Positions 23,301 through 62,451 of a stretch of DNA of 64,000 bases are shown piece by piece. The DNA lies in IMG/VR virus record IMGVR_UViG_3300019142_000010, positions 1 through 64,000 of that record, one strand, 5' to 3'. This DNA comes from a virus. The notes below the pieces were generated by a model that did not search any database, had not been told where the DNA came from, and saw only the letters and a list, made by a program, of their open reading frames with translations. The translations under genes were made by a program, and so were the position numbers. Positions within the stretch are counted from its first letter, which is position 1. Every line of letters begins with the position of its first letter.

Positions 23301-26300
23301 CGTCAACCCGCCACCAGCGCCCACCGGATTTACTCTGCAACAGTTCGGGGCGACGTTCCTCTGGAAATTCACGGCGCTCTCCGGGATGGAATATGAGTTC
23401 TCTCCGGATCAATCTCTCATCATCGGGCGCGGCACGACGGGCGAGTTCATCGAGACGGGCATCCCGTCGGCGGCCGGCACATATACCCGTTATCTGAGAG
23501 CGGTGGAGGACGGCGTGGTGCCGAGCGCGTGGACGCCCGCGCAGATCGTCGTCGTCCCGCCGCAGCCGCCCGCCGTCGCCGCGCCCGACTATGACGGGCT
23601 GAACCTCATCTACAAGCTGACCGCCTCGACCTCTCCCCACGTCACGCGCTATCTCGTCAAAGATACGCTCGGCAATCTCATCGCCGACGACATCGGGCTT
23701 GAATGGAAGATGAAGATCACGAGCGGGACGTCCGCTTACACTCTTCGCTTCTACGCGGCGACGGAAACGGGACTCGTCTCGACCTCCTACACCGAGGTGT
23801 CGTTTACCGTGCCCGTGCCGAACCCGGTCTTGAGCTACACGCTCTCGCATGAACTGGATTCAATCGTGCATACGGTCACGCCGCCCGCTGTGCTGCCCGA
23901 TGGGCTGGAATTTGAATTCGCCAGAGCCAACGACGGGACGGGCATCATCGGCACGCGCAAAGATTTGACGTTGCGCGAATACGGGTATCCGGTCGCGTCG
24001 CGCTCTCTGCCGCGCTACGTGCGCACGCGCAACCTCGCCGGGCGCACGAGCGGGTGGACGGCGGCCGCGCCCGCGTTGACGGTCGCCGTGCCGGCCGCGC
24101 CGACGCTGACGAAAGATGCGGCCAATGGGAACCCCACCTTCCTCCCGGTGCAGGTGGCCACGACGACGACGCCACGCGCGCGCATCCGTCACACCATCGT
24201 GCAAGTGCGGGCGACCGGCCCGGCATGGCCTTCGACCGCTGAAGGCACACCCGGCACATACCGCATCACGGGAGCGCCGCCGACGATTGACATCAACTGG
24301 ACGGCGGGCGGGACGATGGAGTTCCGCGTAGCGCATGAAGATGAATTTTCGGAAGCGCTGAATGATCGCCAGTGGTCAGCGACGACCTCGCACACCTTTC
24401 CGCAATTCAATGACGGCGCGATTGACCCGGCCTCGAACTTCCTCAAGAAAGCCTCGACGCGCAACCCCATCATCACCGGCGGCGGCACTTTCAAGTGGTC
24501 GAGCGACTATAAATTTTCGTGGACAGACCCGCTCCTCATCACCGGCCTGCCGTCTATCGTCTCGACGAATCACAACATCGAGATCGCAGCTAACCCGCTG
24601 GGGACGAGTCTCGGGGAAGGGCAGCGCCTCGTCGCCGTGCACACGCTCGGTCAGACGACCGCCGCGCTCTCCGTCGTCACGCTCTCGAACTATGAAGCGC
24701 CGGCTGAGCGGGAGCCGACGCAGCACTATCCGCTGGCCGAGCGCAAGGCGGGCGAGACGAGAGTGAAGGTCTATACCGGTCATTTGCTCTCGGCTAATCG
24801 CTTCCTCGATGCGTCGGTGCTGATTCCTCGTCTCGCATCCTTTGAGGCCGATTTTCAAAACCTGATCGTGGGTGAGGCCAACATTGGCTTGCTGCACGCC
24901 ACGAAGATCATCGCAGATTCGCTCTACGGTCGGATCGTTTTCGGCGACCGGATCGGCTCACAGAACTTCATCTCCTACGGCGACCTGAACCCACACGCCG
25001 AGGAAGGGCTGTGGCACGACGCGACCTGGAACATCACGATTTCATCTGACCGCAAGAGCATCATCAAGACGTCCGTGCCTTCGGGATTCCCCGCCGGGTT
25101 CGACGCCAAGGCCGTCCTGACGCGCGCCATCCATCGCGGCGCTGGCTACGTCGAATGGCCTGCCGGGATGCCGGGCTACACGCTCGGTTTCAACTTCAAT
25201 ACTTCCGCGACCGCATACAATGAGCTTGACTACGCCTTCTACTACGATGGCATCAACACCTACGCGAACGAGTCCGGCACACTCATAAATTTGCAGGCGG
25301 GCGCGCTGCCTGCCGCCACCCTCTTCCGCCTGGCGGTCAACGCATCGGGGCAAGTCGAGTATTGGATCGGCGGCGTGCTCAAGCGCACCGTGACCACGCC
25401 GACATTGCTATACCCCCTCAAAATTCAGGCCGATATTTACAACCAGTTCGTCGTCATCAACAACATGAAGCTTCACGGCGTGCTGACCGACACGACCGGC
25501 AAGAAAGTGAGATGGCAGAACCGCATCAACTGTTCTTACGACGCGAACGACGACCTCTCCAAGACCGGCGGCGCGGCCAACACGCACGACGCGGGCGCGG
25601 TCAGCGTCGAGACGTTCCGGAGTGGGCAGGACGTCTGGATCGAGCACCAGGTGGCGGACCTCGGTGTCAATCGCACGCTCGGCTTCACGGAGCTCATGAA
25701 TCCTGTCGGCGGCTCCGGGTTCAAGTACGAGGTGACAGTTGACGCGGGCAACTCAATGTACATCATCTACAACTACGGCGCGGCTTATCACCTCACGGAC
25801 ATCGGCGCGGTAGCAGTCGGTGATGTTATCCGCGTGGCGGTCGAGAACGGAGTCTTCACCGTCCGGCGTAACGGTGTGTTGAGGCATTTCGGCACGGGCA
25901 TCACCGTCCCTGCGACCTTCCGCGCGGGCGTCGGCTTCTACACGTCAGGCGCGACACTGAAGACCATCCGCTGGGGGCAGGCCACGGCGAAGGCCACGGG
26001 CTGGCAGGCCGGGCATAACGGCGACATCGAGATGGCCGGCACGCTCCTGGTTGACGGCAACGAGATCGGTGACGTCGGCGCGCGCGCGCTACAGGGCATC
26101 CGCTCGGACAAGCGGGTGCGCGGCAATGACGGCGACGTGTTCCTGATGCATAAGGTCACGGCGCTCACGGTCGTGGACAGTAAGGTGCAGGAGGACGGCG
26201 ACGTGTGGGTGCAGTGGGCTTCCACCTTTCCCGGCTACGGCACGGATAATTATGCAAACGGCGACTCGATTCGCCGGGCGCAGGTGCGAGTGCTGAACAA

Positions 26301-27405
26301 GTTTGGTGAACATATCAAGACATTTCCGCTATTTCCCTGTGTCGGCGATGGGGTGATCGGGCAAGGCATCCACTCTCGAAAGTACGCTGACCCGCTCGAA
26401 GAGGCGATCTACGAGGTCATTTTTTACAACGTCTATGGACCGAGCGCGCCGAAGTATCTCAACAAGGGAGTGACGAGCGATGTGATGCCGGCGCTTGTGG
26501 TGCCGAACGACCATCCGCGCGATTTGACCGGAACGGTACTTTCACAGTCTGAGGTGAAGCTGTCCTTCCGTGCGCCGACGACGAACACCGGGGGCGGGCG
26601 GGTGCTGTGCTATCGGCGCGCGGGCACCGTAGCGTGGACGGAAGAGGGGCTCATCACGGCGAACCCGCGCGTGGTGGAACGCCTGGACGCCGATACGTGG
26701 TGGGAGTTCCGCATCGCATCTACGGGGACGACGCCGAACAGCTATTCGAATATCCTCCGTCTCAAAACGCTTCAACCGCAGCTTCCAGCGTGGACGGGAG
26801 CAGACGGCGCACCGGCAGAACTGGCGGCAGCGGTCGCTTCATCATCACAGATCAACCTGACGTGGGCGAATACCACGACGCCGCAACCCATCAACACCAT
26901 TAACATCGTGCGCTACAACCCGGACGGCACGAAGACCAATTTCACCGCCGCCGCGTCCACGTCCACCAGCTACAGTGACACGACCTGCAATCCCGACACG
27001 CAATACACGTACGCGCTCTTCTACGGCTTCGACGTGCCGAACTACGTCGGGCCGCACTGGTCGAATCCGACCTCGGCGCGCACGCCCGCTTCGGCCACGT
27101 CCAGCCCGACCGGATTATCGGCAGCTCGCGTCGGCACTTCACAGATCAACCTGATGTGGGTGAATAACGGCGGGACGGGAACCATCTACATCGATTGGAA
27201 GGAGGATGACGGCAATGATACCGTCTGGCCGAATGTGGCCATCACGCCCGGCGCAGTCTCATCCTACCAACACACCGGGCGGGCGGCGGGCAAGGCTTAC
27301 GCTTACCGCATCCGCAACTCACAGACCGGCACTGTCCCGTCAAACGTGGCGCGCGCCCGCACGGAAGCCATGAACGAGTACGGCGACGATTTCCCGTCCA
27401 GCTAA
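20320..27405 (+). CDS. Host-specificity / central tail fibre protein (gpJ-like, FN3-rich)
   Basis: 2361 aa. The N-terminal third is gpJ/GTA-g15-like (VKVSHPKYNWVEKLFMVIDA..). There are at least three tandem FN3-like modules (about 22800-23570), three copies of an ~85-aa beta-rich domain, and C-terminal FN3 modules (QINLTWAN.., QINLMWVN..). Confidence 0.85.
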   Translation: MAANNNIKNVKGVLASAFGVHLVNGYTFLYEVLTGTGEEKEVVVVQGLGDGHGAGWDGPREVTYRAHAIDPSRYHFHPGTFSKGEDDPVQGVDSWFPSGITYNGTAYMVAKLPPGIASEDNPNELQGIYRCLRLPNYNSLGQQIDINGVVVPNGATPEEYFYYSANPARVAAYLILFGRGLSKARIDWAAWTAWRDYCDTLIPWEDGTTTEIPVSFNWTTGGGMTPAAGGAAYKSRQTTGAHAWDSGTTTQNACPVNANRRGIEFTVGTGAFMAGLSTTTEISGSGFTYGALDIALYFETGTGALKCYARGAYLGTLGTWALGDVFRIQDDAGAWKFYKNGVLIPHGLALAAPPTGALYGAIACNAPGSGVTSAGYFPAAGVGSTTRQRMIPRFECHIAFTQETSLEDALDQVCFMACADWQETPEIRFLTPEPAVMPGLEAHAAQRLIVHHFDAREGGADNILKRTITAYPVDVRERWSKVTGAFRDLDHQDLIEDFVDDDRDALIDQAKRIVTPGQINLGNMNRSQALRVLKWLMRLRSDRIWFCELRAGADSLDVLPGDVVKVSHPKYNWVEKLFMVIDAADDGEGADERTFILQEYDPANYYHDDDHQRGRRTSAPPTPNPFAPAPVIYACDVHERLIEQQDGTVISAIHGTVTFTGFSRRQLAKVYIKPAAASDSEWELAGANPLHPHPETGMDVFEVRGVAVGNYHIKVVTESETTAQLPFSQHPVFPVTVAGKLTPPPVPTGLSATLGDNGMVRFTCTLPPVSDFAFLRVYDSTGAVVISRVDSNTWQEPPPAVGSTITRKVTAFNYSGRESGFSNPYTFTMPLPLAPTDVQVTRLKSRPSLAVTWTALEGFDYQVSRDQVTLLYSGKSSLFIHENAFTGAGTYTYYVRSVRFGQASAWVAAEVVIAPPAAPANVALTRQGRHLSLSWAVEDGQEYQVSADQATILWSGRGGSFRHENAIIGAAIYMRYVRTLKDGLASDWTLATLTVNPPPAPTGFTLQQFGATFLWKFTALSGMEYEFSPDQSLIIGRGTTGEFIETGIPSAAGTYTRYLRAVEDGVVPSAWTPAQIVVVPPQPPAVAAPDYDGLNLIYKLTASTSPHVTRYLVKDTLGNLIADDIGLEWKMKITSGTSAYTLRFYAATETGLVSTSYTEVSFTVPVPNPVLSYTLSHELDSIVHTVTPPAVLPDGLEFEFARANDGTGIIGTRKDLTLREYGYPVASRSLPRYVRTRNLAGRTSGWTAAAPALTVAVPAAPTLTKDAANGNPTFLPVQVATTTTPRARIRHTIVQVRATGPAWPSTAEGTPGTYRITGAPPTIDINWTAGGTMEFRVAHEDEFSEALNDRQWSATTSHTFPQFNDGAIDPASNFLKKASTRNPIITGGGTFKWSSDYKFSWTDPLLITGLPSIVSTNHNIEIAANPLGTSLGEGQRLVAVHTLGQTTAALSVVTLSNYEAPAEREPTQHYPLAERKAGETRVKVYTGHLLSANRFLDASVLIPRLASFEADFQNLIVGEANIGLLHATKIIADSLYGRIVFGDRIGSQNFISYGDLNPHAEEGLWHDATWNITISSDRKSIIKTSVPSGFPAGFDAKAVLTRAIHRGAGYVEWPAGMPGYTLGFNFNTSATAYNELDYAFYYDGINTYANESGTLINLQAGALPAATLFRLAVNASGQVEYWIGGVLKRTVTTPTLLYPLKIQADIYNQFVVINNMKLHGVLTDTTGKKVRWQNRINCSYDANDDLSKTGGAANTHDAGAVSVETFRSGQDVWIEHQVADLGVNRTLGFTELMNPVGGSGFKYEVTVDAGNSMYIIYNYGAAYHLTDIGAVAVGDVIRVAVENGVFTVRRNGVLRHFGTGITVPATFRAGVGFYTSGATLKTIRWGQATAKATGWQAGHNGDIEMAGTLLVDGNEIGDVGARALQGIRSDKRVRGNDGDVFLMHKVTALTVVDSKVQEDGDVWVQWASTFPGYGTDNYANGDSIRRAQVRVLNKFGEHIKTFPLFPCVGDGVIGQGIHSRKYADPLEEAIYEVIFYNVYGPSAPKYLNKGVTSDVMPALVVPNDHPRDLTGTVLSQSEVKLSFRAPTTNTGGGRVLCYRRAGTVAWTEEGLITANPRVVERLDADTWWEFRIASTGTTPNSYSNILRLKTLQPQLPAWTGADGAPAELAAAVASSSQINLTWANTTTPQPINTINIVRYNPDGTKTNFTAAASTSTSYSDTTCNPDTQYTYALFYGFDVPNYVGPHWSNPTSARTPASATSSPTGLSAARVGTSQINLMWVNNGGTGTIYIDWKEDDGNDTVWPNVAITPGAVSSYQHTGRAAGKAYAYRIRNSQTGTVPSNVARARTEAMNEYGDDFPSS

Positions 27406-37865: not shown

Positions 37866-40800
37866 CTAATTCAGCGAGGTACTGAGCAGCGCGGGCGACG
37901 AGGCGGCGGCGGCGGGGATGAACGAGGACACGTCCGCGCCCGCGCCCGGCTGTTCAATCTTGTCGATGACGACGATGCGCGCCGCCCAACTCGTCGCGCG
38001 GTCGGAATTCTCGAACGCCCCTTCCGGCAGTTCGAACGACTCGCCGCCGACGTGTTCGAGCCACGCGCGGAACTCCTGCGCGCGGCCGTCGCCGCGGTAA
38101 AAGACTCCCTCACTCATGAGAGTCGTGATGCGCCCGCCCCACTTGCACCACTCCCACATCCGGCGCACGTGCGTGATGTCCGTTCCCAGCCCGTCGCAGC
38201 CGAAGGGCGGATTAGCGATGACGCGATCAAAGCCCGTCTCCGGGACAGGGAGGCGCAGGAAATCGTCATGGATGGGGCGGTAGCCCTGCGCTTCGAGGGC
38301 GCGGACGAGCAGACCGGCAATCTCGATGAGCGTCAACTCCGAGTTCGGGTAACGGTCGCGCACGATGTTGGCGATATGCGCGCCGCCGGCTTCCGGCTCA
38401 AGGATCGTCATGCCGTCTTCGATGGCCGCGTGTTCGAGCATGAGTTCCACCACGTCGGGCGGGGTAGGGAAGTAATCGGGTGGGAATTGACCCGGATACA
38501 TCTCGCGCATGACGCGCTCGGCTCTGGTCATCTCCGCGACCGCGACCCTGCGCCCCAAGTGTTCGCGCAGCGCGGCGCGCAGTTCCGGCAGCGAATCGAT
38601 ATTCATGAGACGCAGCCGCTTGAAGTGGCCGAGGGCTTCTCGGATGCGGTCGAGCGTCCAGCGCGACGTGCGGTGCAGGCGCGCGCGCCGGTAGAAATGG
38701 CGCAGCAGGTCGGCGCGCTCGTCGCCGATAAATCGAATCTCATCGGAGACGTGTTCGCGGCAGAGTTTGAGGATGCGCGACGAGACGAGCTTCGAGCCGT
38801 CGCGGTCGCCTATCTCGCGGGCGATTTCCGCGAGGGTGTGTTTGCCGACGGACGGCCAGGGATACGCGACTTTGGCAACGTCCCCGCCGGCGCGCGCCAG
38901 TATCTCGTCGAGAGCTTCGGCGTGGGTGCGCCAGCGGATGCGGTCGGTGTGGCGCGTGAGGCGCGCTTGCAGGTCCCGCGCGTAGTTCCTGAGCGTGTCG
39001 GCCATCGCCAACTGCTCGCGCGCCGTGTCGTCGGCGCGCTCGGCCTGCATGATGCGCCGCTCGGTGTTGAGCCGTCGCGGCGAGTTGAGCGCATCGGTCG
39101 CTCTGTCTTCCATCCGGTCGGCCAGCACGCCGAAATGCCCGATAGCGTTCTGACGGACGCGCTCGCGGTTGGCGAGCAATTTTTCAAGGCGCGAGATTTC
39201 AAACACGTCGCGGCTCTGTAGCTGAACGAACTTCTCGGCCTGCGCCTCGGAGAAGAAACGAAAGCCGCCCGGCGTGTTCGTCGGTTTCCACTCGCGCTGA
39301 TAGTTGCCGTCGAGCTTGCGCGCGGCGATGCACAATTCCTCGAACGTCGTGCGGTCTTCGCGCTCGGCCAGGACGACGACCCATATCTCACACTGGCGTT
39401 TGTCGTGATAGGACTTGACGATCTCCATGTAGTTGCCCTCGCCTATCTCGATGCGCCGGATGTTCGCCTTTTCAATCATCAGGCCAGCGCGCCGCTCGTG
39501 CGCGACGTCCGCGCGCAGTTCGTCAAAGCGAGCCAGTTCTTCCTCATTCAGCTCGCGCTCGCCGGCGACGCGGATCATCCGCTCGATTTCATAAGACTTG
39601 CCCCGGCCTTTCGGGATCATCGCCTTGTCTCGTTTGAGAGCGGCGATGCCGCGCTGCCGGATGCACGTCTCGAAGTCTTCGAGCGTTTGCGGGTTCGTGA
39701 CGGCGCGCTCGCGCTCGGCCTGCGCCGCTTCGTAGCGGGCGCGCGAGGCGGCTACTCCCTCGCGATGCGCGTCCAGATCGTCGTCGGTAAGTGCATTGAC
39801 GGTCTTCGTGATGAGTTCAAGCCGGTAGGCCTGATCGTTGAAATAACGCATCGAGACGCCGCCCGCGCGGAGCCGCCCGAAAGTGAAATCCTCGATCAAG
39901 TCCCAGACGATCCGCTCGACCAGTTCATCCTTGCGCTCGCCCCGGCTGCCGATACCGCCGATACATTCGAGACGTCCTTTCTTGAACTTGTTGAGTTCGT
40001 CGGTCAGTTGTGGCCGCGAGACGATCACGCGCCGGAACATGGCCACGTGCGCCGCGGCGTCCGTCTCAGGTTGGAGGATCGTCTCCGAGAAGTAGCGGCG
40101 CACCTCTTCGAGCGCGACGCCGGGCTGCTCGTCGGCCGTCGCGCCGTCGCCGTCCGTGATGGGCGGCGGCGGCGGGGTGTCATCAAAGTGGGGACAGGTG
40201 AGACTGTGATTCGGCGTGACGTAGCCGCATCGCTGACAGCGCCCGCCGGTCGGGACTGGCGCGGCCGTCTCTGCGCTTCCCGTGCCTTCAGGCTGCGCGT
40301 TCGCGCTCGCGTCGGCGTCCCCCGTGGCGTTACTCGCCGCGGCGGTGAAAGCTTCTGGCCAGACGGCCAGAACTTCCTCGCGCGTGACGTAGGAGAGCGC
40401 GCCGCGGCGCACGCTCCATCGAGAGCCGTCCGAGAGTTCGAGCGTGATGAAATCAACCTTGTGTTTCTGCTCCTGCCCGACGGCGCGGCCGATGCGCTCG
40501 AACATCTGGTGCGCGATGTCATTGATGCGCCAGTAACCGAATGCAAAGCGCGCTTCGAGTTCGGCCTGTTTCGCGCTCGTCGCGGCGCAGATTTGCGCCC
40601 GCTCGGCGGCGGTGAATCGTTCATCGGAGGGTGCGAAGTTCTCCACGACGAGCGGCAGCCGGAAGATGTCTTGATACTTGAACAGTTCGTCGGGGCGGGT
40701 GAAGGAAGCGACGGCGGCCACGTGCAACTGCGCGTCGGTGGCGAGCGTGTGCGTCGGGACGCTGGCGGCGCGCAGCCGGTCGCGGCGCGGATCGCGCGGT

Positions 40801-41597
40801 CTGAGGTTGAGGCGCGGGCGAGCCAGGACGTACGGCACGTTGCGCCATTCAACGAGCATCCCTTCATAGCCTACCTGTCGTTGCCAGGTCTTGTATTCAA
40901 ACGTCTCACCTGTGAAGTCCTCGCGCCGGACGAGGCGCATCGCGTCGCGCGACCCGGGCGCGTGGCCGCGGCCGATGTCAACGTAGAGTTCGCGCCCGAA
41001 CTGGAAGGGGCGGCGCACTCTACCAATCGTCACCTTGTCGGCGGAATAAGACTCGCGGATGTCGCCGCCCGTCTCCAGGCGCTCCGGGTCAACCTCGACC
41101 GTGAGGCGTTCGGCCGTCAAGTCTCCGAGCGCCTCGCGCTCCGGGCCGGATTGCGAGCCGTACACGACCGTTTCTTTCTTCGGCTGGCGGCGTCGCTCGT
41201 CGGCGGCGGCGTGACGTTGCAGGGCTGAGAGCGCGCCCTGATTGGCCGCCTCTGTGATGTTGGCCGCGGCCGCTCCGTTCATGACGAGTTCGACGGCCGC
41301 CGGGAGTTCCACGCCGGCGACGAGATGCCGGCAGATTTGCAGCCGTTCGCTGCACAATTCCAGATGCGCCGTGTGGTCGCGCTCGGCGTACTGGTCGCCT
41401 TCGGCGCGCGCCCGCTCGATGTGCCGTTCGTGCCCGGCGATGGATAATTGTAAATCTTCCTCGGTGCGCTTCCAGACGGCGGGCAGTTCAAAGCCCGCGA
41501 ACGCCGTCAGGCGCGGGCGCAGTTGAAAATAGTCACGATGCCCGTCGGCGCGGGCGCGAACGCGTTGGTCACGATATTTTTTTCCTGCTCTACGCAT
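37866..41597 (-). CDS. Large polyvalent-type protein with C-terminal N6-adenine DNA methyltransferase domain
   Basis: 1243 aa. The C-terminal ~220 aa carry motif I (ILEPEAGGAHI) and motif IV (NPPF). A central zinc ribbon is present (CQRCGYVTPNHSLTCPH). No Walker A was seen. The long helical N-terminal regions resemble the LPD-type modules of polyvalent proteins (from memory). Confidence 0.8.
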   Translation of the reverse strand: MRRAGKKYRDQRVRARADGHRDYFQLRPRLTAFAGFELPAVWKRTEEDLQLSIAGHERHIERARAEGDQYAERDHTAHLELCSERLQICRHLVAGVELPAAVELVMNGAAAANITEAANQGALSALQRHAAADERRRQPKKETVVYGSQSGPEREALGDLTAERLTVEVDPERLETGGDIRESYSADKVTIGRVRRPFQFGRELYVDIGRGHAPGSRDAMRLVRREDFTGETFEYKTWQRQVGYEGMLVEWRNVPYVLARPRLNLRPRDPRRDRLRAASVPTHTLATDAQLHVAAVASFTRPDELFKYQDIFRLPLVVENFAPSDERFTAAERAQICAATSAKQAELEARFAFGYWRINDIAHQMFERIGRAVGQEQKHKVDFITLELSDGSRWSVRRGALSYVTREEVLAVWPEAFTAAASNATGDADASANAQPEGTGSAETAAPVPTGGRCQRCGYVTPNHSLTCPHFDDTPPPPPITDGDGATADEQPGVALEEVRRYFSETILQPETDAAAHVAMFRRVIVSRPQLTDELNKFKKGRLECIGGIGSRGERKDELVERIVWDLIEDFTFGRLRAGGVSMRYFNDQAYRLELITKTVNALTDDDLDAHREGVAASRARYEAAQAERERAVTNPQTLEDFETCIRQRGIAALKRDKAMIPKGRGKSYEIERMIRVAGERELNEEELARFDELRADVAHERRAGLMIEKANIRRIEIGEGNYMEIVKSYHDKRQCEIWVVVLAEREDRTTFEELCIAARKLDGNYQREWKPTNTPGGFRFFSEAQAEKFVQLQSRDVFEISRLEKLLANRERVRQNAIGHFGVLADRMEDRATDALNSPRRLNTERRIMQAERADDTAREQLAMADTLRNYARDLQARLTRHTDRIRWRTHAEALDEILARAGGDVAKVAYPWPSVGKHTLAEIAREIGDRDGSKLVSSRILKLCREHVSDEIRFIGDERADLLRHFYRRARLHRTSRWTLDRIREALGHFKRLRLMNIDSLPELRAALREHLGRRVAVAEMTRAERVMREMYPGQFPPDYFPTPPDVVELMLEHAAIEDGMTILEPEAGGAHIANIVRDRYPNSELTLIEIAGLLVRALEAQGYRPIHDDFLRLPVPETGFDRVIANPPFGCDGLGTDITHVRRMWEWCKWGGRITTLMSEGVFYRGDGRAQEFRAWLEHVGGESFELPEGAFENSDRATSWAARIVVIDKIEQPGAGADVSSFIPAAAASSPALLSTSLN

Positions 41598-45783: not shown

Positions 45784-46740
45784 TTACTGGAACTGCGCGG
45801 GGTTCGTCTTGGCCGCGTCCTGGATGGCCGCGATGGGGTCGCCCTTGCCCGGCTTGGCGAGCTTGTGGTAGCGGATGTTGCGCCCCTTGCCGTCTTCGAG
45901 TCGGACGACCAGCCCCATGGCGGCCAGCCCGCGCGCGATGTTGCGGTCGGCGTTCGAGTTCAGATCGCCGCGCGTAACGGGCTGCTCGGGCGTCGCCGCG
46001 TTGAGGCGGTTGTAGATGGCGACGGCGGCCTGCGCGAGCTTGTCGGTGCGGCTCTGGCCGCCGGCATCGGCCGAGCGCGCGGCGCGGGCTGGCTGGCTGG
46101 ACTCGGGGGCAGCGTCAGCGGCGGCCGGGGCGGTGACGTTCGCCGCATCGCGCAACTGCGCGCTGGCCTCGCGCGTGTCCTGGACGGCTTTGGCGGCGGC
46201 GGTGCGGGTGGCGCGGGCGGCCTTGCCCTTCGTCGCCCCCTTCGTCGGAGCGGTGGCGGCGGCAAACTCAGGGTCGAGTTCAACGGTCGTTTCGTTCACC
46301 GGGGCGGCGGCGGCAGTCTCAAGCGTCTCTTTGCTCGCGCCCTTCTTCGTCGCGCCCTTCTTGCTGGCGGCTTTGGTCGTGGTGGTGGTGGCGGTGGTGG
46401 TGGTGGCGGCGGCTTTGGTCGTATTTTTCATGGTGTCGTTTTCCTCTCTCTGTGAATCAGGGTTAATGGTGGCCAATGCGATCAAGCGACGCATCGGATT
46501 AGTTTCGGTTTCGAGTCTGCGCCATTCGTCGATGCCGAGCAGCGAGCAGAGTTGATCGGAGGCGGCGCGCGTAGCTGAGCGAACCTGCGTGCGACGAGCG
46601 CACGCCTCACGATATTGTTCCCAATCGTTGTCGCTCGCCAGCGCGAGACATTCGCGGTCAACTCTCTGCAACTCGGTATTCAAAGAACGATAGCGCGTGA
46701 TGAGGGCGGCGGTCGCTGCGTTTGCTTCTGGTGCTGCCAT
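45784..46740 (-). CDS. Low-complexity Ala/Thr/Lys-rich DNA-binding-like protein (first gene after P4)
   Basis: 318 aa. An internal in-frame ATG at 46431 has a good SD (GAGGAAAA). The central part is a histone-H1-like AKT-rich tract and the C-terminus is wHTH-like (NIARGLAAMGLVVRLEDGKGRNIRYHKL). Confidence 0.5.
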   Translation of the reverse strand: MAAPEANAATAALITRYRSLNTELQRVDRECLALASDNDWEQYREACARRTQVRSATRAASDQLCSLLGIDEWRRLETETNPMRRLIALATINPDSQREENDTMKNTTKAAATTTTATTTTTKAASKKGATKKGASKETLETAAAAPVNETTVELDPEFAAATAPTKGATKGKAARATRTAAAKAVQDTREASAQLRDAANVTAPAAADAAPESSQPARAARSADAGGQSRTDKLAQAAVAIYNRLNAATPEQPVTRGDLNSNADRNIARGLAAMGLVVRLEDGKGRNIRYHKLAKPGKGDPIAAIQDAAKTNPAQFQ

Positions 46741-46794
46741 CGTCTCGTTCGTTCCTCTCTCTCGTCTGCCCGCGTCGTCTCGCGGTGTGACGGA

Positions 46795-46822
46795 ACTATA
46801 TCAAAGTTTTATATAGTGTCAA
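46795..46822 (-). promoter_or_regulatory. Early promoter P4
   Basis: The minus strand reads TTGACA-ctatataaaactttga-TATAGT (16-nt spacer, extended -10 TG). Confidence 0.75.
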
Positions 46823-47067
46823 TAGGGCAAGACGCAAAAAGGCGCGTCTTTACTGCGCGCGGGACTCCTAACGGCGGGCGGACAACACTTGCCGTCGCAA
46901 AAAATTTTTCACTTTTTTTTGTGGGATGTGGGAAAAATCAATCGCCGCCCCCGGAGCTCCCCAGAGGCGGCGTCGATTTGAGTATTTTCCATCGAAAACA
47001 CTCGGCCTGTAGCTGCGGATTGTACCATGAGCGGGGGCTGGTGACTAGGCAAAATGAAAAAAGTATG

Positions 47068-47097
47068 TTGATTTTTTATAGAGTCGAAGAGTAGTAT
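47068..47097 (+). promoter_or_regulatory. Candidate rightward promoter
   Basis: TTGATT, an 18-nt spacer, then TAGTAT. The spacer contains ttttatagag, related to the P1-P4 spacer. Confidence 0.3.
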
Positions 47098-47142
47098 GCG
47101 CGGCAGTGTTCGAGCGCGAGAGAACTATTTGCCGCCAGGCTA

Positions 47143-47171
47143 TTGACAGGGAAGTACCGGGCGGCTAGGCT
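47143..47171 (+). promoter_or_regulatory. Candidate rightward promoter
   Basis: TTGACA-17 nt-TAGGCT. It would give a ~260-nt leader before the initiator gene. Confidence 0.3.
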
Positions 47172-47433
47172 CGCGCCCGATTGAGAGCGGCGCACCTTTG
47201 GCCTGAGGCGCGCGGCTCGCCGTCGTATCCTCTGCCAGCACTTAGCCTGTGGCTGGACGAGGCGGGCGGTTCAGACCGTAACGCGAAAGTGTTGCGGAAC
47301 TTTAACCGGCAGTGCTACAAACACAGCGTCCCCCCTCCCGACCTGAGAGTTGGACGGTGATTTTGTAGGCGGCCTATAGGAGCTCCAACATGCGAAGCCT
47401 AGCAATCTTCCGTGCCCCGTCGTCTATCTGCAC

Positions 47434-48825
47434 ATGGACGAGGGCAGGGAACGAGTCCACCGGCAGGGGGTGTCGTCCATGGTAAAGACGACGGAACCTC
47501 CGGCCACCAAACTCTTAATCAACGAAACCCCGCTGCAATTTCTTCCGACGCTCGCCGTGCTCATCGGCGACCGCCCGGCGCTCGCCCTGCAACAAGTTCA
47601 CTACTGGCTCAACAACGTCAACGAGCACGGACGCCGCACGGCGCATCTGCGCGAGGGGCGCTACTGGATTTACAACAGCTACGATGACTGGCACGCCGAC
47701 AAGTTCAAGATGTGGTCATTGCCGACCATCAAGCGCGTGTTCCTGTTCCTCGAACGAGAAGGCATCGTCGAGACCAGGCAATACGAACTCTCGGAAGGAA
47801 ACGGGCGGAAGTGGTACACCATCAACTACGAGCGCGTGACGGAGATCGAGCATTGCGGAGGATTGACACAGAAACAGAAACGGCGCACGCGAGCGACGAG
47901 ACAGCCCGGCCAGGACGCCGACGAAGAGTTGTCATTCGACGCCATCGGGGGGGGTGGGATCAATTTGATCCCACCCCCCCCGATGGATCAAATTGATCCC
48001 ACCTTCGGATCAGAACGATCCGTTCTCTTAGGTACAGAGAGAACTACACAAGATCGAATACCACATGCTTCGCATGGCGAAGCGAGCGAGAACGGCGGGG
48101 CGACGGCGTTAGCCCTCATCCCGCTGCGCGGGGAAGCGGCGGCGGCGACGACCGCGGCGCACGCGCAGCGCCTCGTGGTCGAGACGGACACGGTGGGCGA
48201 GTTGATCGCGGCGGCGATGCAGGCGGGCGTCCCCGTCACCGAGGACTTGATCAACGATGCCGAGCGGGTGGCGCGCGAACTGGCGCGGGGCGCGCTCGGC
48301 GGGCGGCGCCGGCCGGAGGACTGCCCGGCGTGGTTCATCCGCGGATGTTTCGGCGTGCTGCGCAACAAGGTGCGCACGTTCCGGGACGAAGACGTGCAGG
48401 GCGCGGCGGCCAAGCGGCTCTGGGCAGACTTTTGGACGATTGAGCAGGTGGCGTGGTGCCTGGACCTGCTCTTGCGTGACCCTTATCGCAAAGACTGTCG
48501 CGAGTCGTTGCTGACAGTCGAGCGCGAGATCGGCACCCGATACGCGAAGGCGTATCGAGCGACGGACGGAACAACCCCACACACAACACAACCAGACGGA
48601 AAGGACACACCAGGATATGAAAGCAGCAGCACTTTTGGAACGGCCGCCGGAGCCGGAATTGAGGCGCGAGCCGCCGACAATTACGGCGGTTTCTGCCAGC
48701 AGCCCGCAGCAGCAGCAGCAGCAGCGGCACCAGCAGCGGTTGAAGATACTGGCGCAGTTGTTGGAGGACGCGCTCATCACCTCCAACTTGTCGAACGTGA
48801 AGACGGACGAGGCGCGGCTTCGTGA
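47434..48825 (+). CDS. Replication initiator / replisome-organiser-like protein (alternative start 47479; 3' end uncertain)
   Basis: The N-terminal wHTH-like pattern LALQQVHYWLN..GRYWIYNSYDDWHADKF..WSLPTIKRVFLFLEREGIVE is typical of phage O/DnaD-like initiators (from memory). The ori-like repeats lie in its linker. Confidence 0.5.
   Translation: MDEGRERVHRQGVSSMVKTTEPPATKLLINETPLQFLPTLAVLIGDRPALALQQVHYWLNNVNEHGRRTAHLREGRYWIYNSYDDWHADKFKMWSLPTIKRVFLFLEREGIVETRQYELSEGNGRKWYTINYERVTEIEHCGGLTQKQKRRTRATRQPGQDADEELSFDAIGGGGINLIPPPPMDQIDPTFGSERSVLLGTERTTQDRIPHASHGEASENGGATALALIPLRGEAAAATTAAHAQRLVVETDTVGELIAAAMQAGVPVTEDLINDAERVARELARGALGGRRRPEDCPAWFIRGCFGVLRNKVRTFRDEDVQGAAAKRLWADFWTIEQVAWCLDLLLRDPYRKDCRESLLTVEREIGTRYAKAYRATDGTTPHTTQPDGKDTPGYESSSTFGTAAGAGIEARAADNYGGFCQQPAAAAAAAAPAAVEDTGAVVGGRAHHLQLVEREDGRGAAS
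47943..48026. repeat. Candidate origin: 43-bp perfect palindrome plus iteron-like repeats and GATC cluster
   Basis: Positions 47943-47985 read catcggggggggtgggatcaa-t-ttgatcccaccccccccgatg. The 20-bp unit GGGATCAAtTTGATCCCACC recurs as TGGATCAAaTTGATCCCACC 28 bp downstream. The palindrome cggatc-agaac-gatccg lies at 48006-48022. Confidence 0.6.
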
Positions 48826-49255
48826 TCTGCGCCGGCGCATCTTCGAGGCGGCGAAAATCTACAACGACCATCTGCGCCCGGAGCGGATACCGACCTACAA
48901 ACTGCCGGCCGTCTTCGTTCACGCCTCGCTCTACCGCGACCCGGAACACCCGTTCTGCGTGGCCGACGTGCGCCAGGCGTGGACGGAATTGAAGGGCAAC
49001 CCGGAACTGATGCTGCGCTATCTGCCCGACGGCGACCCGACGGCGCAGCACGCGCTCCTGCCACCGGCAGACCCGAACTGCCGGGAGTGCCGGGGAACGG
49101 GGATGCGGCGCGGGAGCGTCGTCTGTACGAGCTGCCGTACGTGCCCGAACTGCTTTAATTCACGGCTGGAAATTTTCGAGGTCGAGGCCGGGCAGACGGC
49201 GGCGCGGCGGTGCGGGCGGTGCTGTCCGCCGCTGCCGCCCGAGGAATTCGGCTAA
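48617..49255 (+). CDS. Hypothetical protein with DnaJ-like CxxCxGxG zinc finger (start uncertain, alternative GTG 48797)
   Basis: It contains CRECRGTGMRRGSVVCTSCRTCPNC. The 5' 209 nt overlap the initiator ORF in another frame. Confidence 0.45.
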   Translation: MKAAALLERPPEPELRREPPTITAVSASSPQQQQQQRHQQRLKILAQLLEDALITSNLSNVKTDEARLRDLRRRIFEAAKIYNDHLRPERIPTYKLPAVFVHASLYRDPEHPFCVADVRQAWTELKGNPELMLRYLPDGDPTAQHALLPPADPNCRECRGTGMRRGSVVCTSCRTCPNCFNSRLEIFEVEAGQTAARRCGRCCPPLPPEEFG

Positions 49256-49473: not shown

Positions 49474-50217
49474 GTGAGCGTTTTGGCACCGTCGCGCCTC
49501 GGCGACTTTTTCTCTCAATACCTCGCACCGTTTTCCTCGCACGTGCACCGCAATGTGGAGATGGTCTGCGCGCTGATGACGGCGCGCTGTCTGGTGACGC
49601 AGGAACACCTGGAGCGGACGGCCATCTACGCCGACGGGATGGCGGAGATTTTCGGGCTGTCGCGGGAGCGGCGGCGCGCGCTGCGGATCGGGGCGCTGTT
49701 GCATGACGTGGGGAAGATGGGAGTCCCGGACGAAATTCTGCATAAGCCGGGCAGACTGACGGCCGCGGAATTCAACGTCATGAAGCTGCACCCGCAGATC
49801 GGGGAGCATATTCTGGCGCAGAATCACTTTCCGGTCGGCGTGACGGATTGCGTCCGCTGGCATCATGAGCGATGGGGCGGGCGGGGCTACCCGGACGGCC
49901 TGAAAGGGAAGGAGATACCGATCACGGCGCGCATTCTGGCCGTCGTTGATTGCTACGACGCGGTGCGCGAGGACAGGCCCTACCGCGCCGGGATGGACCG
50001 GCAGGAGGCGATAGACGTGTTGCGGTGCGGCTCGGAGACGATGTTCGAGCCGCTCATCGTGAAAGCCTTCGTCCAGAATTTGCACAAATTTGAACGGGAG
50101 ATAGAAAGGCACAAAGTTTCCTATACGCCGTCGCGCATCGCGCCTTCCACCCTCACAGCGGAAGCGCGGGCGGTCGAGCCGCCGCAGGGCCTCGACCCGC
50201 CGCCGCTCAAGGCCTAA
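49474..50217 (+). CDS. HD-GYP domain phosphodiesterase
   Basis: It has LLHDVGKMGVPDEIL, HPQIGEHIL, HHERWGGRGYPDGLKGKEIP and AVVDCYDAVREDRPYR. It is a stand-alone domain with no receiver or sensor. Confidence 0.8.
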   Translation: MSVLAPSRLGDFFSQYLAPFSSHVHRNVEMVCALMTARCLVTQEHLERTAIYADGMAEIFGLSRERRRALRIGALLHDVGKMGVPDEILHKPGRLTAAEFNVMKLHPQIGEHILAQNHFPVGVTDCVRWHHERWGGRGYPDGLKGKEIPITARILAVVDCYDAVREDRPYRAGMDRQEAIDVLRCGSETMFEPLIVKAFVQNLHKFEREIERHKVSYTPSRIAPSTLTAEARAVEPPQGLDPPPLKA

Positions 50218-50251: not shown

Positions 50252-50926
50252 ATGGCTATCCGTCGCTATCGGAGCCGCAGGACAACTGCGCCTCCGGGGC
50301 AATACCTCACCGGCGGACTGCTCGTGCATGACAATCAAGGCAATCTCTCACCGAAGCCTATCGGGGTCAGCAAGCGAGCGTCCAAAAACCTACAGAACGA
50401 ACACCAGGAACAGAGCGCATTTTTCAGCCAGATCGAGAAGAACGCGCAGCGTGCGCCGGAGCTGCTGCGCTTCCGCGCCATCCCGAACGGCGGCTACCGG
50501 GGCGAGCGCGTCGAGTACAAACGCAAGGATGGAAGGATCGGGGATTACAACCCGGTGGCGTATAAATTGAAGGCAGAGGGCGTCCGCGCCGGCACGCTCG
50601 ACACGCTCTGCACGGTGGCGCGGCGCGGCTACCATTCGCTGTGGATCGAGTTCAAGGTGAATGACAACACGCTCTCGGAAGAACAGCAGCGGGAGCGTGA
50701 ATTGCTGCTCGCGGAAGGGCACTCGGTTCATACGGTCTGGACGTGGGTGGAAGCGTGGCACGTCTGCATCTGGTATTTTGATTATGACCCGGAGCAGCTT
50801 TTCATGCCGCTCAAGAATGGATTTTTCGACAACGGGCGCGGCCACGACCTCAAGTGCGGCTGCGACCTGCAACTGAGGGCGATGCCGTCATGGGACTATC
50901 AGAAGAGTCGAAACATATTTCGATGA
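50252..50926 (+). CDS. VRR-NUC domain nuclease
   Basis: It has the D..ExK core GTLDTLC..GYHSLWIEFKVNDNTLSEEQ followed by LLAEGHSVHTVWTWVEAW. Confidence 0.75.
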   Translation: MAIRRYRSRRTTAPPGQYLTGGLLVHDNQGNLSPKPIGVSKRASKNLQNEHQEQSAFFSQIEKNAQRAPELLRFRAIPNGGYRGERVEYKRKDGRIGDYNPVAYKLKAEGVRAGTLDTLCTVARRGYHSLWIEFKVNDNTLSEEQQRERELLLAEGHSVHTVWTWVEAWHVCIWYFDYDPEQLFMPLKNGFFDNGRGHDLKCGCDLQLRAMPSWDYQKSRNIFR

Positions 50927-51496: not shown

Positions 51497-52936
51497 ATGG
51501 CTACTCAAAATACTAACACGAATAAAGTCACAGTGGCGGCAGAGGCGCAGGGCTTCATGCTGACCGCTACGTTCATCGTCGAGGGCAACCGGTACGCGCA
51601 CAAGGCGATGAATTTTAGCGGGCATGCCCGCTTCGGTGAAGGCGACGAAGTGTTTGCGAAAGTGAGCGAACTCAACAGCCGCGATAATCGATTCAGTATC
51701 CAGGTCAGATACGCGGATATTCCCGAAGCGGTCAAAGCCCTCCTGCTCGCCAGCGACCCCGAATTCGCCAACTGGCAGCCTCAATACAGCTATCCCTTCC
51801 CCGTCGCGGCAGAAGACACAGCGCGCGTGCGCGCTCTTTACGAATCGCTCTGCGCAATTGAACGCCAGTACGAAGTCGAGAGCATCAAGCGCGAAGTAGC
51901 ACTCGTCGCAGAATCGGTGAAGGACAAAGCTCAATATCAACTCACTGTTCAGGCAGGCGAGCGTGATGGGCATGGCAAAATCACGCTCGCCGGGTCGGAT
52001 GTGAAGTGCTACCTCAGCCGCCACAGTGACGGTCGCTGGCTCGCCGTCGTCTCTCATCGCAATGTGCCTGACTCGTTCCTCAAGGCGCGGGGCATCAAGC
52101 GTAAAGACCTCAATGGCGGGGATGTCAAAATTTTCCTGACGCGCGAGAGCCAGGCGCTGCTGCTCGACACCTTCGCTGCCGTGACTGCCGACATGGACGC
52201 AGAGCGCGAGGCAGTCGCGTCGCGCGCGCGCGCGGAAGCCGCGCAGTTTCAGGTGAAGGGATGGTGCTGGGACATAGGCTGCGACACGACCGATTCTTAC
52301 TATTTCATCTACCCGGATGAAGCGCATGCTTCTCTGCGTCCCTACATCAAGAGCAGTAATGAAATCCTCTTCTCGAAGCACCTGAAGAGAACTGACCTCG
52401 ATATGCTACGCGAGCGGTTCGGTGTGATCGGGGAAACCGAGGCGCGTCCCTACAGCTATGGCGGCTACATCTTCTCTATCGAAGCTTACGAATACCTGGC
52501 GAAACTGACGCAGGAGCGCGAAGCGGAAGTACAGCGCAAGGCGCGTGTGAGGGAAGAGGCTGAGGCCGCCGAGCGGCGGCGTGTGACTGAGGCCGCTCAG
52601 GGACGCGAAATCGTCGAGGTGACGGTCGAGAGCGCACCACACCCGCAGGATTTGTCGAACGTGATCTTGAATAGCCCCGCGCCCCAGGACGGCGCGTTCC
52701 TCGTCCACCGCCGCGTCGAGCGCGAGACGTGGGAGAAGATGAAAGCGGCGGGGACGCACTATCTCGATGCGGAGATGCTTGAAGATTTCGATATGTTCAA
52801 CGCAGAACCGGGCTGGCGGTATTCGCTCGCGGCGATTCATGTTCTGCTCGATGCAGGTTTCGCGGTCAAGATCGAGCGCGACGTGATGACGACACACGCC
52901 GAGTTGGACAACCTCTTCAAAATGGAGGTCAAGTAA
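51497..52936 (+). CDS. Hypothetical protein
   Basis: 479 aa with a strong SD (GAAGGAGA). Local GC is lower by eye. No motif recognised. Confidence 0.6.
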   Translation: MATQNTNTNKVTVAAEAQGFMLTATFIVEGNRYAHKAMNFSGHARFGEGDEVFAKVSELNSRDNRFSIQVRYADIPEAVKALLLASDPEFANWQPQYSYPFPVAAEDTARVRALYESLCAIERQYEVESIKREVALVAESVKDKAQYQLTVQAGERDGHGKITLAGSDVKCYLSRHSDGRWLAVVSHRNVPDSFLKARGIKRKDLNGGDVKIFLTRESQALLLDTFAAVTADMDAEREAVASRARAEAAQFQVKGWCWDIGCDTTDSYYFIYPDEAHASLRPYIKSSNEILFSKHLKRTDLDMLRERFGVIGETEARPYSYGGYIFSIEAYEYLAKLTQEREAEVQRKARVREEAEAAERRRVTEAAQGREIVEVTVESAPHPQDLSNVILNSPAPQDGAFLVHRRVERETWEKMKAAGTHYLDAEMLEDFDMFNAEPGWRYSLAAIHVLLDAGFAVKIERDVMTTHAELDNLFKMEVK

Positions 52937-56444: not shown

Positions 56445-57404
56445 ATGAGCACTGCAACACCCGCCCCGCACAGCACCGCACAAGAGACGCCGCGCCCGCG
56501 CGTCCTCAAGGCAAAAGACCGCGACGGACGGAAGAGCGGCAAAGGAGCCAGCGCGCCGCCCGAGGCCGCGCCCGCGCGCACGGCGACGTGGGTTGACCGC
56601 TTCGTGCGCCGCGAACTGGAAGACCCGGCGCAATTGCTCGGCAATGACCTGAACTGGCGCGGGCATCCCCGCTACCAGCAGATGGCCATGATCGGGGTGC
56701 TCGAAACGCTCGGCTGGCTCGATGAGGTGAAAGTCAACATCAACACCGGGCGCGTCTTCAACGGCCACATGCGCTGTGAGATTGCGATCTCGAAGGGCGA
56801 GCCGGTGCCGACGAGCTACTACGATCTGACGGAAGAGGAAGAGCGGATGGCGCTGGCCACGTTCGACCCGCTGGCCTCGCTCGCTTTCGTTGCGAGCAAA
56901 GAGAACTACGACGCTCTGGCCGACCTGCCGGGCGTCGCGCAGGCCGCCGACGGGCTGCAAAAGCTCGTGGCGCACATGGCCGGCCGGGGCAACATCCAGG
57001 CGGCCTATGAAACGAATTTTCTCTCAGGATTTTTGGATGCTGCCAGCGCAGAGGCGACGACGACCGCCGGCGCGCAGGCACCGGGAGCTGCTCCGGGCGC
57101 GAGTGGGAACGCGCCCGAATCTGTTGCAGGGGCGGCTTCCGTGGGCGACGGCCAAAGAGGAACAGCGCCGGGTCTGCCGGGGAGTGCTTCGTTAGTGGAG
57201 GCGGAGCATGCAGACCCGAGCGCGGCGGCCGTCGCCGAATATCTCAAGGTCGTCTTCGCGTTTCTGCCGCACCAGAAGCGCGCGCTGTTCGACCTCATCA
57301 ACCGCACGCGCAAGGAGCGTGCGTTGGGCGAGGCGACGCAATCGGAAATTTTATTGATTTTGTTGGGGGTGCCACTGAGCGATGATTCTGATACCGCGAG
57401 CTGA
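56445..57404 (+). CDS. ParB N-terminal-like (ParB/Srx fold) domain protein
   Basis: NWRGHPRYQQMAMIGVLETLGW..VNINTGRVFNGHMRCE follows the N-x-R-x-H..Q..(D/N)GHxR pattern of ParB-like nuclease domains. The C-terminal half is low-complexity. Confidence 0.55.
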   Translation: MSTATPAPHSTAQETPRPRVLKAKDRDGRKSGKGASAPPEAAPARTATWVDRFVRRELEDPAQLLGNDLNWRGHPRYQQMAMIGVLETLGWLDEVKVNINTGRVFNGHMRCEIAISKGEPVPTSYYDLTEEEERMALATFDPLASLAFVASKENYDALADLPGVAQAADGLQKLVAHMAGRGNIQAAYETNFLSGFLDAASAEATTTAGAQAPGAAPGASGNAPESVAGAASVGDGQRGTAPGLPGSASLVEAEHADPSAAAVAEYLKVVFAFLPHQKRALFDLINRTRKERALGEATQSEILLILLGVPLSDDSDTAS

Positions 57405-61326: not shown

Positions 61327-62451
61327 GTGACGATTCTCAAGAAACAAACGGTCGATCTGGATGTGCTGACGCTCTCGCGCCGGCGCATCGCTCGTCTCTT
61401 CGATGAGTTCGATGAAGTGTCGGTGATGTTCTCCGGTGGGAAAGACTCAACCGTCGCTCTCAATCTTACACTCGAAGAGGCCGAGCGCAGAAACCGCTTG
61501 CCCTTGGATGTGGTCTTTTACGATGAAGAGGCTTTGCCGCCTGAAACCATTGAATACTGCGAGCGCGTCGCCCGCGATCCTCGTCTCACCTTACGCTGGT
61601 ACTGCCTACCTATCCAGCACCGCAATGCGTGTTCTCGCAAAGCACCCTACTGGCATCCATGGGCTCCTGAGGATCAGCCCTTGTGGTGTCGCACCCTACC
61701 ATCAGGCGCGCTCACAGTATTGAGCGGTTTCAAACGGCAAGCCATCCCCCAGTGTAACGAACTCATCTACCCCGACCGCTCGAAGCGCACGGCCGTCGTC
61801 ATGGGCATCCGCGCCAGCGAATCGCTCCGGCGCTACCGCTCGGTCGCGCAGCGCGTCGAGGACAACTGGATATCGCCCGATCCCAACTGTCCGCACGTCT
61901 CACTGGTCAAGCCGATTTACGACTGGCTGACGGCGGACGTCTGGACGGCTCCGGCCGTCTTCGGGTGGGACTACAACACGACCTACGACGTGCTTTCACG
62001 TCTCGGCATTTCGCCTAACGATCAACGGGTCTGCCCGCCCTACGGGGAAGAGCCGCTTCGTGGTCTGTGGATGTACGCCCAAGGCTGGCCGGAGCTGTGG
62101 GAACGCATGACGCGCCGGGTACCGGGCGCTCGCACGGCCGCGCGCTACTCGCGCTCGCCGCTCTACGGGTTCGGCGCGGACGTCGAGCGCCCGGCCGGGC
62201 TCTCCTGGCAAGAGGCCATCGCGGCAGCGATTGAGAAGTGGCCGGCCGCACAGCGCGCGCTCATCGCCGAGCGCATCCAGTGGGAAGTCGAAAACCACTT
62301 TCGCAAAAATCCTCAGTCGTCCATCCCGGAGACTGACGCAACGATGTATGACGGCGGCGTGACGTGGCGTTTCCTCTACACGCTGGCCGTCCGCGGCGAC
62401 CTCAAAGGGCGCAGGCGTCCCGACATGCACGCGCCGAAGAAAAACGACTAA
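61327..62451 (+). CDS. IbrA-like PAPS-reductase/PP-loop protein with C-terminal extension, paralog 1
   Basis: It has MFSGGKDSTVAL, YDEEALPPETIEY, YWHPWAPED, CPPYGEEPL and ARTAARYSRSPLYG. The length and extension fit the PAPS_reduct+DUF3440 (IbrA) architecture, from memory. Confidence 0.75.
   Translation: MTILKKQTVDLDVLTLSRRRIARLFDEFDEVSVMFSGGKDSTVALNLTLEEAERRNRLPLDVVFYDEEALPPETIEYCERVARDPRLTLRWYCLPIQHRNACSRKAPYWHPWAPEDQPLWCRTLPSGALTVLSGFKRQAIPQCNELIYPDRSKRTAVVMGIRASESLRRYRSVAQRVEDNWISPDPNCPHVSLVKPIYDWLTADVWTAPAVFGWDYNTTYDVLSRLGISPNDQRVCPPYGEEPLRGLWMYAQGWPELWERMTRRVPGARTAARYSRSPLYGFGADVERPAGLSWQEAIAAAIEKWPAAQRALIAERIQWEVENHFRKNPQSSIPETDATMYDGGVTWRFLYTLAVRGDLKGRRRPDMHAPKKND

Follow-up and report, generated by a model that had tools for sequence, protein, structure and literature searches.

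In the genome of an uncultivated tailed phage (IMG/VR virus record IMGVR_UViG_3300019142_000010, positions 1 to 64,000; this whole 64-kb stretch is hereafter the window), positions 47942-48066 very probably constitute the vegetative replication origin, placed inside the phage's own initiator gene in the part that codes for a linker. This reading draws on sequence comparison and on analogy with characterised phages. The class of origin is the in-gene type of lambda, SPP1 and 80alpha, a kind of arrangement already found in textbooks. That the initiator gene harbours a lambda-like origin had been proposed from the bare sequence (below, the original prediction), and comparison strongly supports the proposal: the protein has a winged-helix N-terminal domain, the repeats fall within the linker-coding segment, they are conserved as DNA, and relatives share the layout. 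Position, anatomy, DNA-level conservation and recurrence in the family are what our sequence comparisons establish.

Three copies of one dyad form a repeat cluster in the initiator gene

The repeat cluster at ~48.0 kb is built around three GGATC-N5-GATCC dyads whose centres, at 47964, 47992 and 48014, are 28 and 22 bp apart (iterons 1 to 3, Table 1); they are the only exact copies of this pattern in the window. What the original prediction had described as an iteron pair and, separately, as nested dyads turns out to be a single 15-bp dyad in three copies. The predicted 20-bp unit was indeed found twice at an offset of 28 bp (47956-47975 and 47984-48003), and the overlapping dyads reported at 48006-48026 are present and include the third copy of the core. 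All seven predicted GATC sites likewise exist, starting at 47958, 47967, 47986, 47995, 48008, 48017 and 48052. At seven in ~100 bp, as compared to 3.9 per kb overall, they represent a local excess and the densest GATC cluster of the window (the runner-up 110-bp window holds four), and six of the seven are half-sites of the three dyads.

Iteron 1 lies at the centre of a perfect palindrome, CCATCGGGGGGGGTGGGATCAA T TTGATCCCACCCCCCCCGATGG. The original prediction had it as 43 bp long (47943-47985); this stretch is present and perfect, but the true extent is 22+1+22 bp (47942-47986). Its arms contain the predicted homopolymer runs, G8 (47947-47954; translated as GGGG) and C8 (47974-47981; translated as PPPP), the only runs of at least seven G or C in the window. 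As single-stranded DNA, positions 47930-48075 fold at -40.6 kcal/mol, compared to -17.5 +/- 3.0 for shuffled sequences (z = -7.6). The Rfam search returned only sub-threshold matches to miRNA hairpins, caused by the perfect palindrome. As had also been foreseen, the region codes for a Gly/Pro-rich linker (IGGGGINLIPPPPMDQIDPTFGSERSV, residues ~170-200 of the open reading frame (ORF) 47434-48825).

The repeats fall between the two conserved halves of a winged-helix initiator

The N-terminal domain of the initiator (amino acids (aa) 7-160) matched PHROG 6493, ‘DnaD-like helicase loader’ (1.6e-27), as well as PHROGs 428 and 11233, ‘replication initiation protein’ (~6e-10), and shares 42-44% identity with the corresponding domains of Staphylococcus and Geobacillus phage initiators. 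The alignment of homologues begins at residue 25, and translation may truly begin at the ATG at 47479. No Pfam family matched the initiator at E <= 0.01. Its only full-length homologue is P0002 (40% identity), encoded on the 7.3-kb contig L004.

In the AlphaFold2 (AF2) model, the predicted local distance difference test (pLDDT) is 72-85 for a winged helix at aa 36-145 and 24-30 for the unstructured linker that follows (aa 146-237), and the C-terminal half is helical at low confidence; overall, the winged helix is placed at aa ~25-145. The repeats encode aa ~170-211, inside the disordered linker and between the winged helix and the conserved C-terminal half. Aligned with P0002, the linker is rich in indels and flanked by two conserved halves. 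For the C-terminal half, which is conserved with P0002 only, there was no Pfam or NCBIfam match and no DnaD- or DnaB_2-like domain. Foldseek against the PDB gave no significant match for the initiator model; the weak ones were generic winged helices, among them the pSK41 RepA N-domain (4pql, 4pt7 and 5kbj; E 0.06-0.2, not significant).

The repeats are maintained as DNA

One and the same dyad is translated into different peptides: GINLIP, DQIDP and GSERS in the window, and DQIDL and GSNCA in L004, where iterons 1 and 2 are translated in a common frame and iteron 3 in a different one. The peptide DQID is spelled GAT CAA ATT GAT, all of them minority codons (GAT 0.32, CAA 0.26, ATT 0.17), with a joint probability of ~0.005; the GC content of third codon positions (GC3) in this phage is 0.80. 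Moreover, the same iteron DNA recurs at overall GC contents of 35%, 44-47%, 60% and 62%. Judged by these sequences, the repeats are DNA elements and not peptide repeats, and their selection as DNA is evident from the fact that frames differ, minority codons are used, and order and spacing recur in distant relatives.

The iteron layout recurs across phages and a plasmid-like element

At the same place, contig L004 carries three copies of CAYCGGATCAAATTGATCTCAT, their order unchanged and their spacing 27 and 22 bp. When the two DNAs are aligned, the three sites, then CCGTTCT, then TACAGAGA all match up, iteron 3 of the window pairing with the third, degenerate repeat of L004; nucleotide identity between the two linkers is 36-47%. 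On the plasmid-like contig L054 (35% GC), which encodes an N-domain of 37% identity, CAGATCAAAAAGACCC, GGGATCAAAAAGATCC and GGGATCAATTTGATCCC precede a perfect ACAGAGACTACTACAGAGACTAC (L054 3250-3360). Because L054 combines the N-domain, the iteron type and ACAGAGACTACTACAGAGACTAC, the initiator/origin cassette appears to be common to phages and plasmids.

Searching IMG/VR for the iteron pair returned six contigs, while the pattern was found in none of the representative genomes, and a literature search on the iteron sequence retrieved nothing relevant. Five of the six (L005, L006, L007, L009 and L010; 44-47% GC) contain four to six GGGATCAAATTGATCC dyads ~21-22 bp apart and then 13-bp TACCAATAGAAGA repeats. 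Dyads and 13-bp repeats alike lie inside the gene for a ~165-aa HTH_36 winged-helix protein that matches replication-initiator and O-like PHROGs, and the iterons again read GI(K/N)LIP or DQIDP depending on the frame. BLASTP detected no similarity between these HTH_36 initiators and the N-domain of the window; both they and the window protein match PHROG 428, at overlapping profile positions. The iteron sequence has thus outlasted recognisable protein similarity between L005-L010 and the window.

The prevalence of the layout was assessed in loci chosen by protein similarity alone (3 viral, 5 genome and 35 metagenome contigs), 40 of which were usable. The test region was defined as the 330 bp after the winged helix, and a chain as at least three copies of an 11-mer with <=2 mismatches at 20-29 bp spacing. 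Iteron chains were present in 19 of the 40 test regions, whereas among 923 control windows taken from these loci only 7 had one. This spacing-constrained test replaced an earlier statistic, a count of 12-mer copies at any spacing, which had not separated test windows from controls. Repeat spacing in the relatives is 22-23 bp.

Iterons differ by lineage (TGCTCAAAATGAGCA, GGGTCAAAATGACCC, ACGTCAATTTGACGT, GGGACAAnTTGTCCC, CCGCAACTTGCGG, ACCCAAAATGGGT and GGATCAAnTTGATCC), and all types follow the common format N3-4 CAA W3 TTG N3-4. Within the recognition helix (WS..T[IV]xR), the residue before the conserved Arg tracks the outer bases of the iteron: K goes with GG[AG]TCAA, R with TGCTCAA, and E or Q with ACGTCAA. 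Such tracking fits an N-domain that would read the iterons.

With respect to gene content, the initiator gene of L054 is accompanied by ParA/CbiA and TraD genes, and its N-domain is fused to a C-terminal DnaA_N. The closest genomic relatives of the window's N-domain (44% identity) are found in metagenome-assembled genomes (MAGs) of Anaerolineales (Chloroflexota; L011-L013). There is a weak hint that the host lineage of the phage may be Anaerolineales-like.

A low-GC tract with a CAGAGA element adjoins the iterons

Directly 3' of iteron 3 begins a tract of reduced GC content, our candidate for the DNA-unwinding element (Table 1). The AT-rich tract of ori-lambda and the unwinding element of SPP1 oriL occupy the corresponding position. 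It holds the lowest-GC 40-mer of the gene, which ranks within the lowest 1.5% of the window. A family 12-mer, ACAGAGAGAACT, occupies 48034-48045, followed by a degenerate second unit, ACACAAGATCGA, at 48046-48057, which contains the seventh GATC. The tract also includes a 7-bp inverted repeat (GTTCTCT, 48022-48028; AGAGAAC, 48038-48044).

In the family, 28 of the 40 test regions contain CAGAGA-N6-CAGAGA, which is otherwise absent from 175 kb searched on both strands. Relatives L002-L047 carry the element ~20-120 bp past the iterons, usually as two to three copies of ACAGAGACTACT. By these counts the motif is a near-diagnostic hallmark of the origin family. Wherever present, CAGAGA is read as [TSP]-E-x-T, and it may serve as a DNA element for unwinding or for the loader, as a peptide motif, or as both.

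Comparison with known in-gene origins

In phage lambda, iterons and an AT-rich tract lie in the middle of gene O (PMC7466680). The window resembles ori-lambda in having its putative origin midway through the initiator gene, in a segment coding for an interdomain linker, with dyad iterons that are centred on A/T and about two helical turns apart, as well as a candidate for an easily melted tract on one side and transcription within the initiator operon (PMC7466680). It differs in the number of iterons (three, as opposed to four to six in lambda), in their unrelated sequence, in a candidate melting tract that is only relatively AT-rich and in the lack of an identified P-like loader. Unlike lambda O, the window protein has no Pfam match and falls outside Phage_rep_O; the only O-like match was that of its homologue P0002, which weakly hit PHROG 678 (6.6e-4).

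SPP1 oriL lies within gene 38 and consists of repeats and an AT-rich unwinding element bound by gp38 (PMC6316719). Here, too, repeats and a candidate unwinding tract reside in the gene of the origin-binding protein itself; the likeness to SPP1 is one of layout, and protein homology was compared with members of PHROG 6493. Among phages with such proteins, Staphylococcus phage P954 (gp20) and Geobacillus phage NIIg9.7 (gp46) have initiators whose N-domains are 42% identical to that of the window, and the equivalent place in the P954 gene holds three copies of GGGACAAAATGGCCC, 22-23 bp apart, and after them ACAGAGACTAAC. In these cultured relatives the initiator gene is followed by genes for a helicase loader and a DnaB helicase. 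By contrast, the C-terminal half of the window protein is unrelated to those of the SPP1 and PHROG 6493 modules, no adjacent loader (G39P-like) and DnaB genes were found, genomic GC content is high (62%), and the closest relatives among genomes come from Anaerolineales MAGs.

For Staphylococcus phage 80alpha, the origin was inferred to lie inside ORF20, since a deletion of this gene could not be complemented in trans (PMC5499656). The RefSeq entry of 80alpha annotates a rep_origin inside gp20, comprising direct repeats and then an AT-rich, 12-mer-like tract. While 80alpha and the window share a replisome-organiser-like gene with a proposed embedded origin, 80alpha gp20 has no BLASTP similarity to the window protein, and its repeats differ and are not dyads. 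Plasmids of the RepA_N type, such as pSK41 with its RepA, use a winged-helix N-domain to bind iterons in the central part of their own repA gene. Plasmid-like L054 carries the window's N-domain and iteron type; the window protein itself has no RepA_N Pfam match, and its fold matches to these proteins are not significant.

A model for initiation

We infer binding, melting and helicase recruitment from the precedents of lambda O at ori-lambda and of SPP1 gp38 at oriL. On this model, dimers of the initiator would bind the three GGATC-N5-GATCC dyads, with their A/T-rich, bendable centres, through the winged-helix N-domain. The bound initiators would then bend the sites and oligomerise into an O-some-like nucleoprotein complex, which would destabilise the adjoining 45-bp low-GC tract bearing the CAGAGA 12-mer. 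The C-terminal half, possibly together with a Cys-rich neighbour, would recruit the replicative helicase, presumably that of the host, given that no loader or helicase was found beside the initiator.

The gene for the Cys-rich neighbour shares ~86 nt with the 3' end of the initiator gene, its TTG start (48740) having been placed by alignment to the homologue, and a counterpart sits at the same position in L004, the sole full-length relative. The protein matched no Pfam, PHROG or NCBIfam family; it may be a partner of the initiator or a helicase-recruiting factor.

Several observations weigh against an origin at this site. GC and AT skew follow the direction of transcription and give no origin signal. 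The presumed melting tract still has 40% GC, and the intergenic stretch 46794-47090 is far more AT-rich (23-30% GC). Only three iterons are present, of which the last has a diverged centre, and the CAGAGA element of the window is degenerate, with one good unit. As 27 of the 28 CAGAGA occurrences are in one reading frame, their conservation could partly be at the protein level. The covariation between helix residue and iteron bases was computed irrespective of kinship among the relatives. Finally, Pfam and PHROG searches found no loader or helicase in ORFs 48617-49255, 49474-50217, 50252-50926 and 51497-52936.

Alternative explanations of the repeats

Might the repeats be a feature of the protein, that is, a flexible Gly/Pro-rich linker devoid of any cis-acting DNA function? 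The region does code for a low-complexity, disordered linker, and the CAGAGA unit is always translated into the same short motif, yet one DNA repeat is read in several frames into unrelated peptides, which effectively refutes this explanation; minority codons are used against a GC3 of 0.80, dyad symmetry would be meaningless for a peptide, and the DNA stays the same from 35% through 44-47% and 60% to 62% GC. We give it next to no chance. The dyads could instead act mainly as an autoregulatory operator or roadblock, or as a secondary site resembling SPP1 oriR, with replication starting at another place such as the AT-rich divergent intergenic region (46741-47433). That region is the most AT-rich one nearby (23-30% GC), gp38 of SPP1 has a further binding site besides the primary origin (PMC6316719), and an initiator bound in its own gene could hinder transcription. 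However, the intergenic region contains no iteron-like repeats, only promoter- and terminator-like sites; the window holds no second copy of the dyads elsewhere; and iterons adjoined by CAGAGA or a low-GC tract throughout the family amount to the layout of an origin rather than an operator. Since autoregulation is compatible with origin function, the two are not truly exclusive, and an operator that takes the place of an origin seems unlikely. A mobile element or miniature inverted-repeat transposable element (MITE) insertion, a pac or cos site and a parS site were considered as well and rejected, the element being kept in place in homologous genes with an origin-like layout.

A further possibility concerns not the site but its control. 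The original prediction held that firing may depend on adenine methylation, possibly by the phage's own NPPF enzyme, which would make the cluster a Dam/SeqA-type origin whose GATC sites serve as a functional signal, N6-methylated by that enzyme or by a host Dam. Besides the seven GATC in ~100 bp, this notion can draw on the under-representation of GATC in the rest of the genome (observed/expected 0.67), on the seventh site lying inside the putative unwinding tract, and on relatives such as L005 with GATC in their 13-mer repeats. But the clustering arises because the half-site sequence is GGATC, which accounts for six of the seven sites; the architecture persists without GATC in relatives whose iterons are, for instance, TGCTCAAAATGAGCA, GGGTCAAAATGACCC or ACGTCAATTTGACGT; in L007, which is closely related to L005, the 13-mers read GATT instead of GATC; no ORF of at least 100 aa contains a DPPY (Dam-type) motif; and the NPPF domain (VIANPPFG) has no link to GATC. 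The sites are thus best seen as a by-product of the half-sites, and the proposed methylation dependence, although possible, went unsupported; we rate it as having a small chance of being right.

The NPPF motif belongs to the gamma-type N6-adenine methyltransferase-like domain formed by the C-terminal ~300 aa of a 1243-aa protein (ORF 37866-41597), and it was the sole match when ORFs of at least 100 aa were scanned for [DNS]PP[YFW]. Similar giant multidomain methyltransferases occur in phages and plasmids. The protein had no Pfam, NCBIfam or PDB-sequence match, its N-terminal ~900 aa matching nothing; GATC specificity can therefore not be deduced for it. Window-wide, GATC occurs 249 times, as compared to 373 expected from a trinucleotide Markov model, and is the second most under-represented 4-bp palindrome after CTAG (0.24). 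This shortage could reflect restriction or Dam/MutH pressure and gives no link to a methylation-controlled origin.

The extended palindrome around iteron 1

The 15-bp extension of symmetry on each side of iteron 1 goes beyond what chance can produce. It has no conserved counterpart in the relatives: in L004 the equivalent spacer has just a G5 run, and the extended match is 10/13. The sequences compared indicate that the G8/C8 extension is lineage-specific. It may be a mutational by-product, namely a quasi-palindrome perfected by template switching. We consider it improbable that the palindrome is a functional addition to the origin, be it a cruciform or hairpin extruded by supercoiling that aids or gates melting and initiator loading, or a slippage-prone pair of homopolymers. 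Whichever alternative frame is entered at G8, a stop follows within 20-50 nt; if slippage did occur, the product would be a protein with the N-terminal DNA-binding domain only, a possible replication inhibitor or copy-number regulator.

Implications

The analysis provides a delimited, testable origin together with its cognate initiator for an uncultivated GC-rich phage. Few genetic tools exist for Anaerolineales, and a cassette of origin and initiator could be the seed of a replicon. In broader terms, one initiator family, distributed over phages and plasmid-like elements of 34-63% GC, keeps one origin grammar in the linker of its own gene: 15-bp N3-4-CAA-W3-TTG-N3-4 dyads at ~22 bp spacing, then CAGAGA 12-mers. 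This grammar may be usable for automatic origin annotation. Concepts are left unchanged, in-gene origins being familiar from lambda, SPP1 and staphylococcal phages.

Genome context

The window represents a tailed-phage genome: the large terminase is encoded at 31-1605, the portal at 1602-3098 and a P22-type coat protein at 7258-8403. Among GenBank phages, nucleotide searches retrieved no close relative. Further loci are compiled along with the origin features in Table 1.

Table 1 Features of the origin region and of other loci in the window
Feature	Position	Strand	Remarks
Replication initiator, replisome-organiser-like, 463 aa	47434-48825	+	PHROG profile matches, homologues, AF2 model
Perfect palindrome, 45 bp (22+1+22)	47942-47986		Centred on iteron 1; direct computation
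Iteron 1, 15-bp dyad GGATCAATTTGATCC	47957-47971		Read as G-I-N-L-I-P
Iteron 2, GGATCAAATTGATCC	47985-47999		Different frame, read as D-Q-I-D-P
Iteron 3, GGATCAGAACGATCC	48007-48021		Half-sites kept, centre diverged
Low-GC tract, candidate DNA-unwinding element	48022-48066	+	40% GC, compared to 64% in the rest of the gene
Cys-rich protein, four CxxC	48740-49255	+	52% identity to L004 6475-6945
HD_5/HD-domain (HD-GYP-like) phosphohydrolase	49474-50217	+	1.4e-32; within replication module
PHROG 824 protein, weak resolvase-like match	50252-50926		After the HD gene
Sigma-70-like promoter, then strong terminator-like hairpin and T-run	47047-47019, then 46972-46943	-	Divergent intergenic region upstream of initiator
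Ala/Thr-rich protein, 318 aa, divergent	45784-46740	-	C-terminal ~160 aa 40% identical to the gene at the same position in L004
Methyltransferase-like protein, 1243 aa	37866-41597	-	PHROG 15406 (giant multidomain methyltransferases), 4e-116
Two very large ORFs, 1804 and 2361 aa	13995-19409, 20320-27405	+	Structural region
ORF weakly matching methyltransferase PHROG 498	56445-57404	+	1.7e-5
PAPS-reductase and DUF3440 protein	61327-62451	+	PHROG 2302, 2e-81

The divergent Ala/Thr-rich protein received no family assignment. For the putative small RNA at 46943-47047, Rfam returned no family; as judged from its sequence, the promoter-terminator pair could yield a transcript of ~50-75 nt. Towards the right end of the window, the PAPS-reductase/DUF3440 gene and the ORF with the weak PHROG 498 match may form a DNA-modification module.

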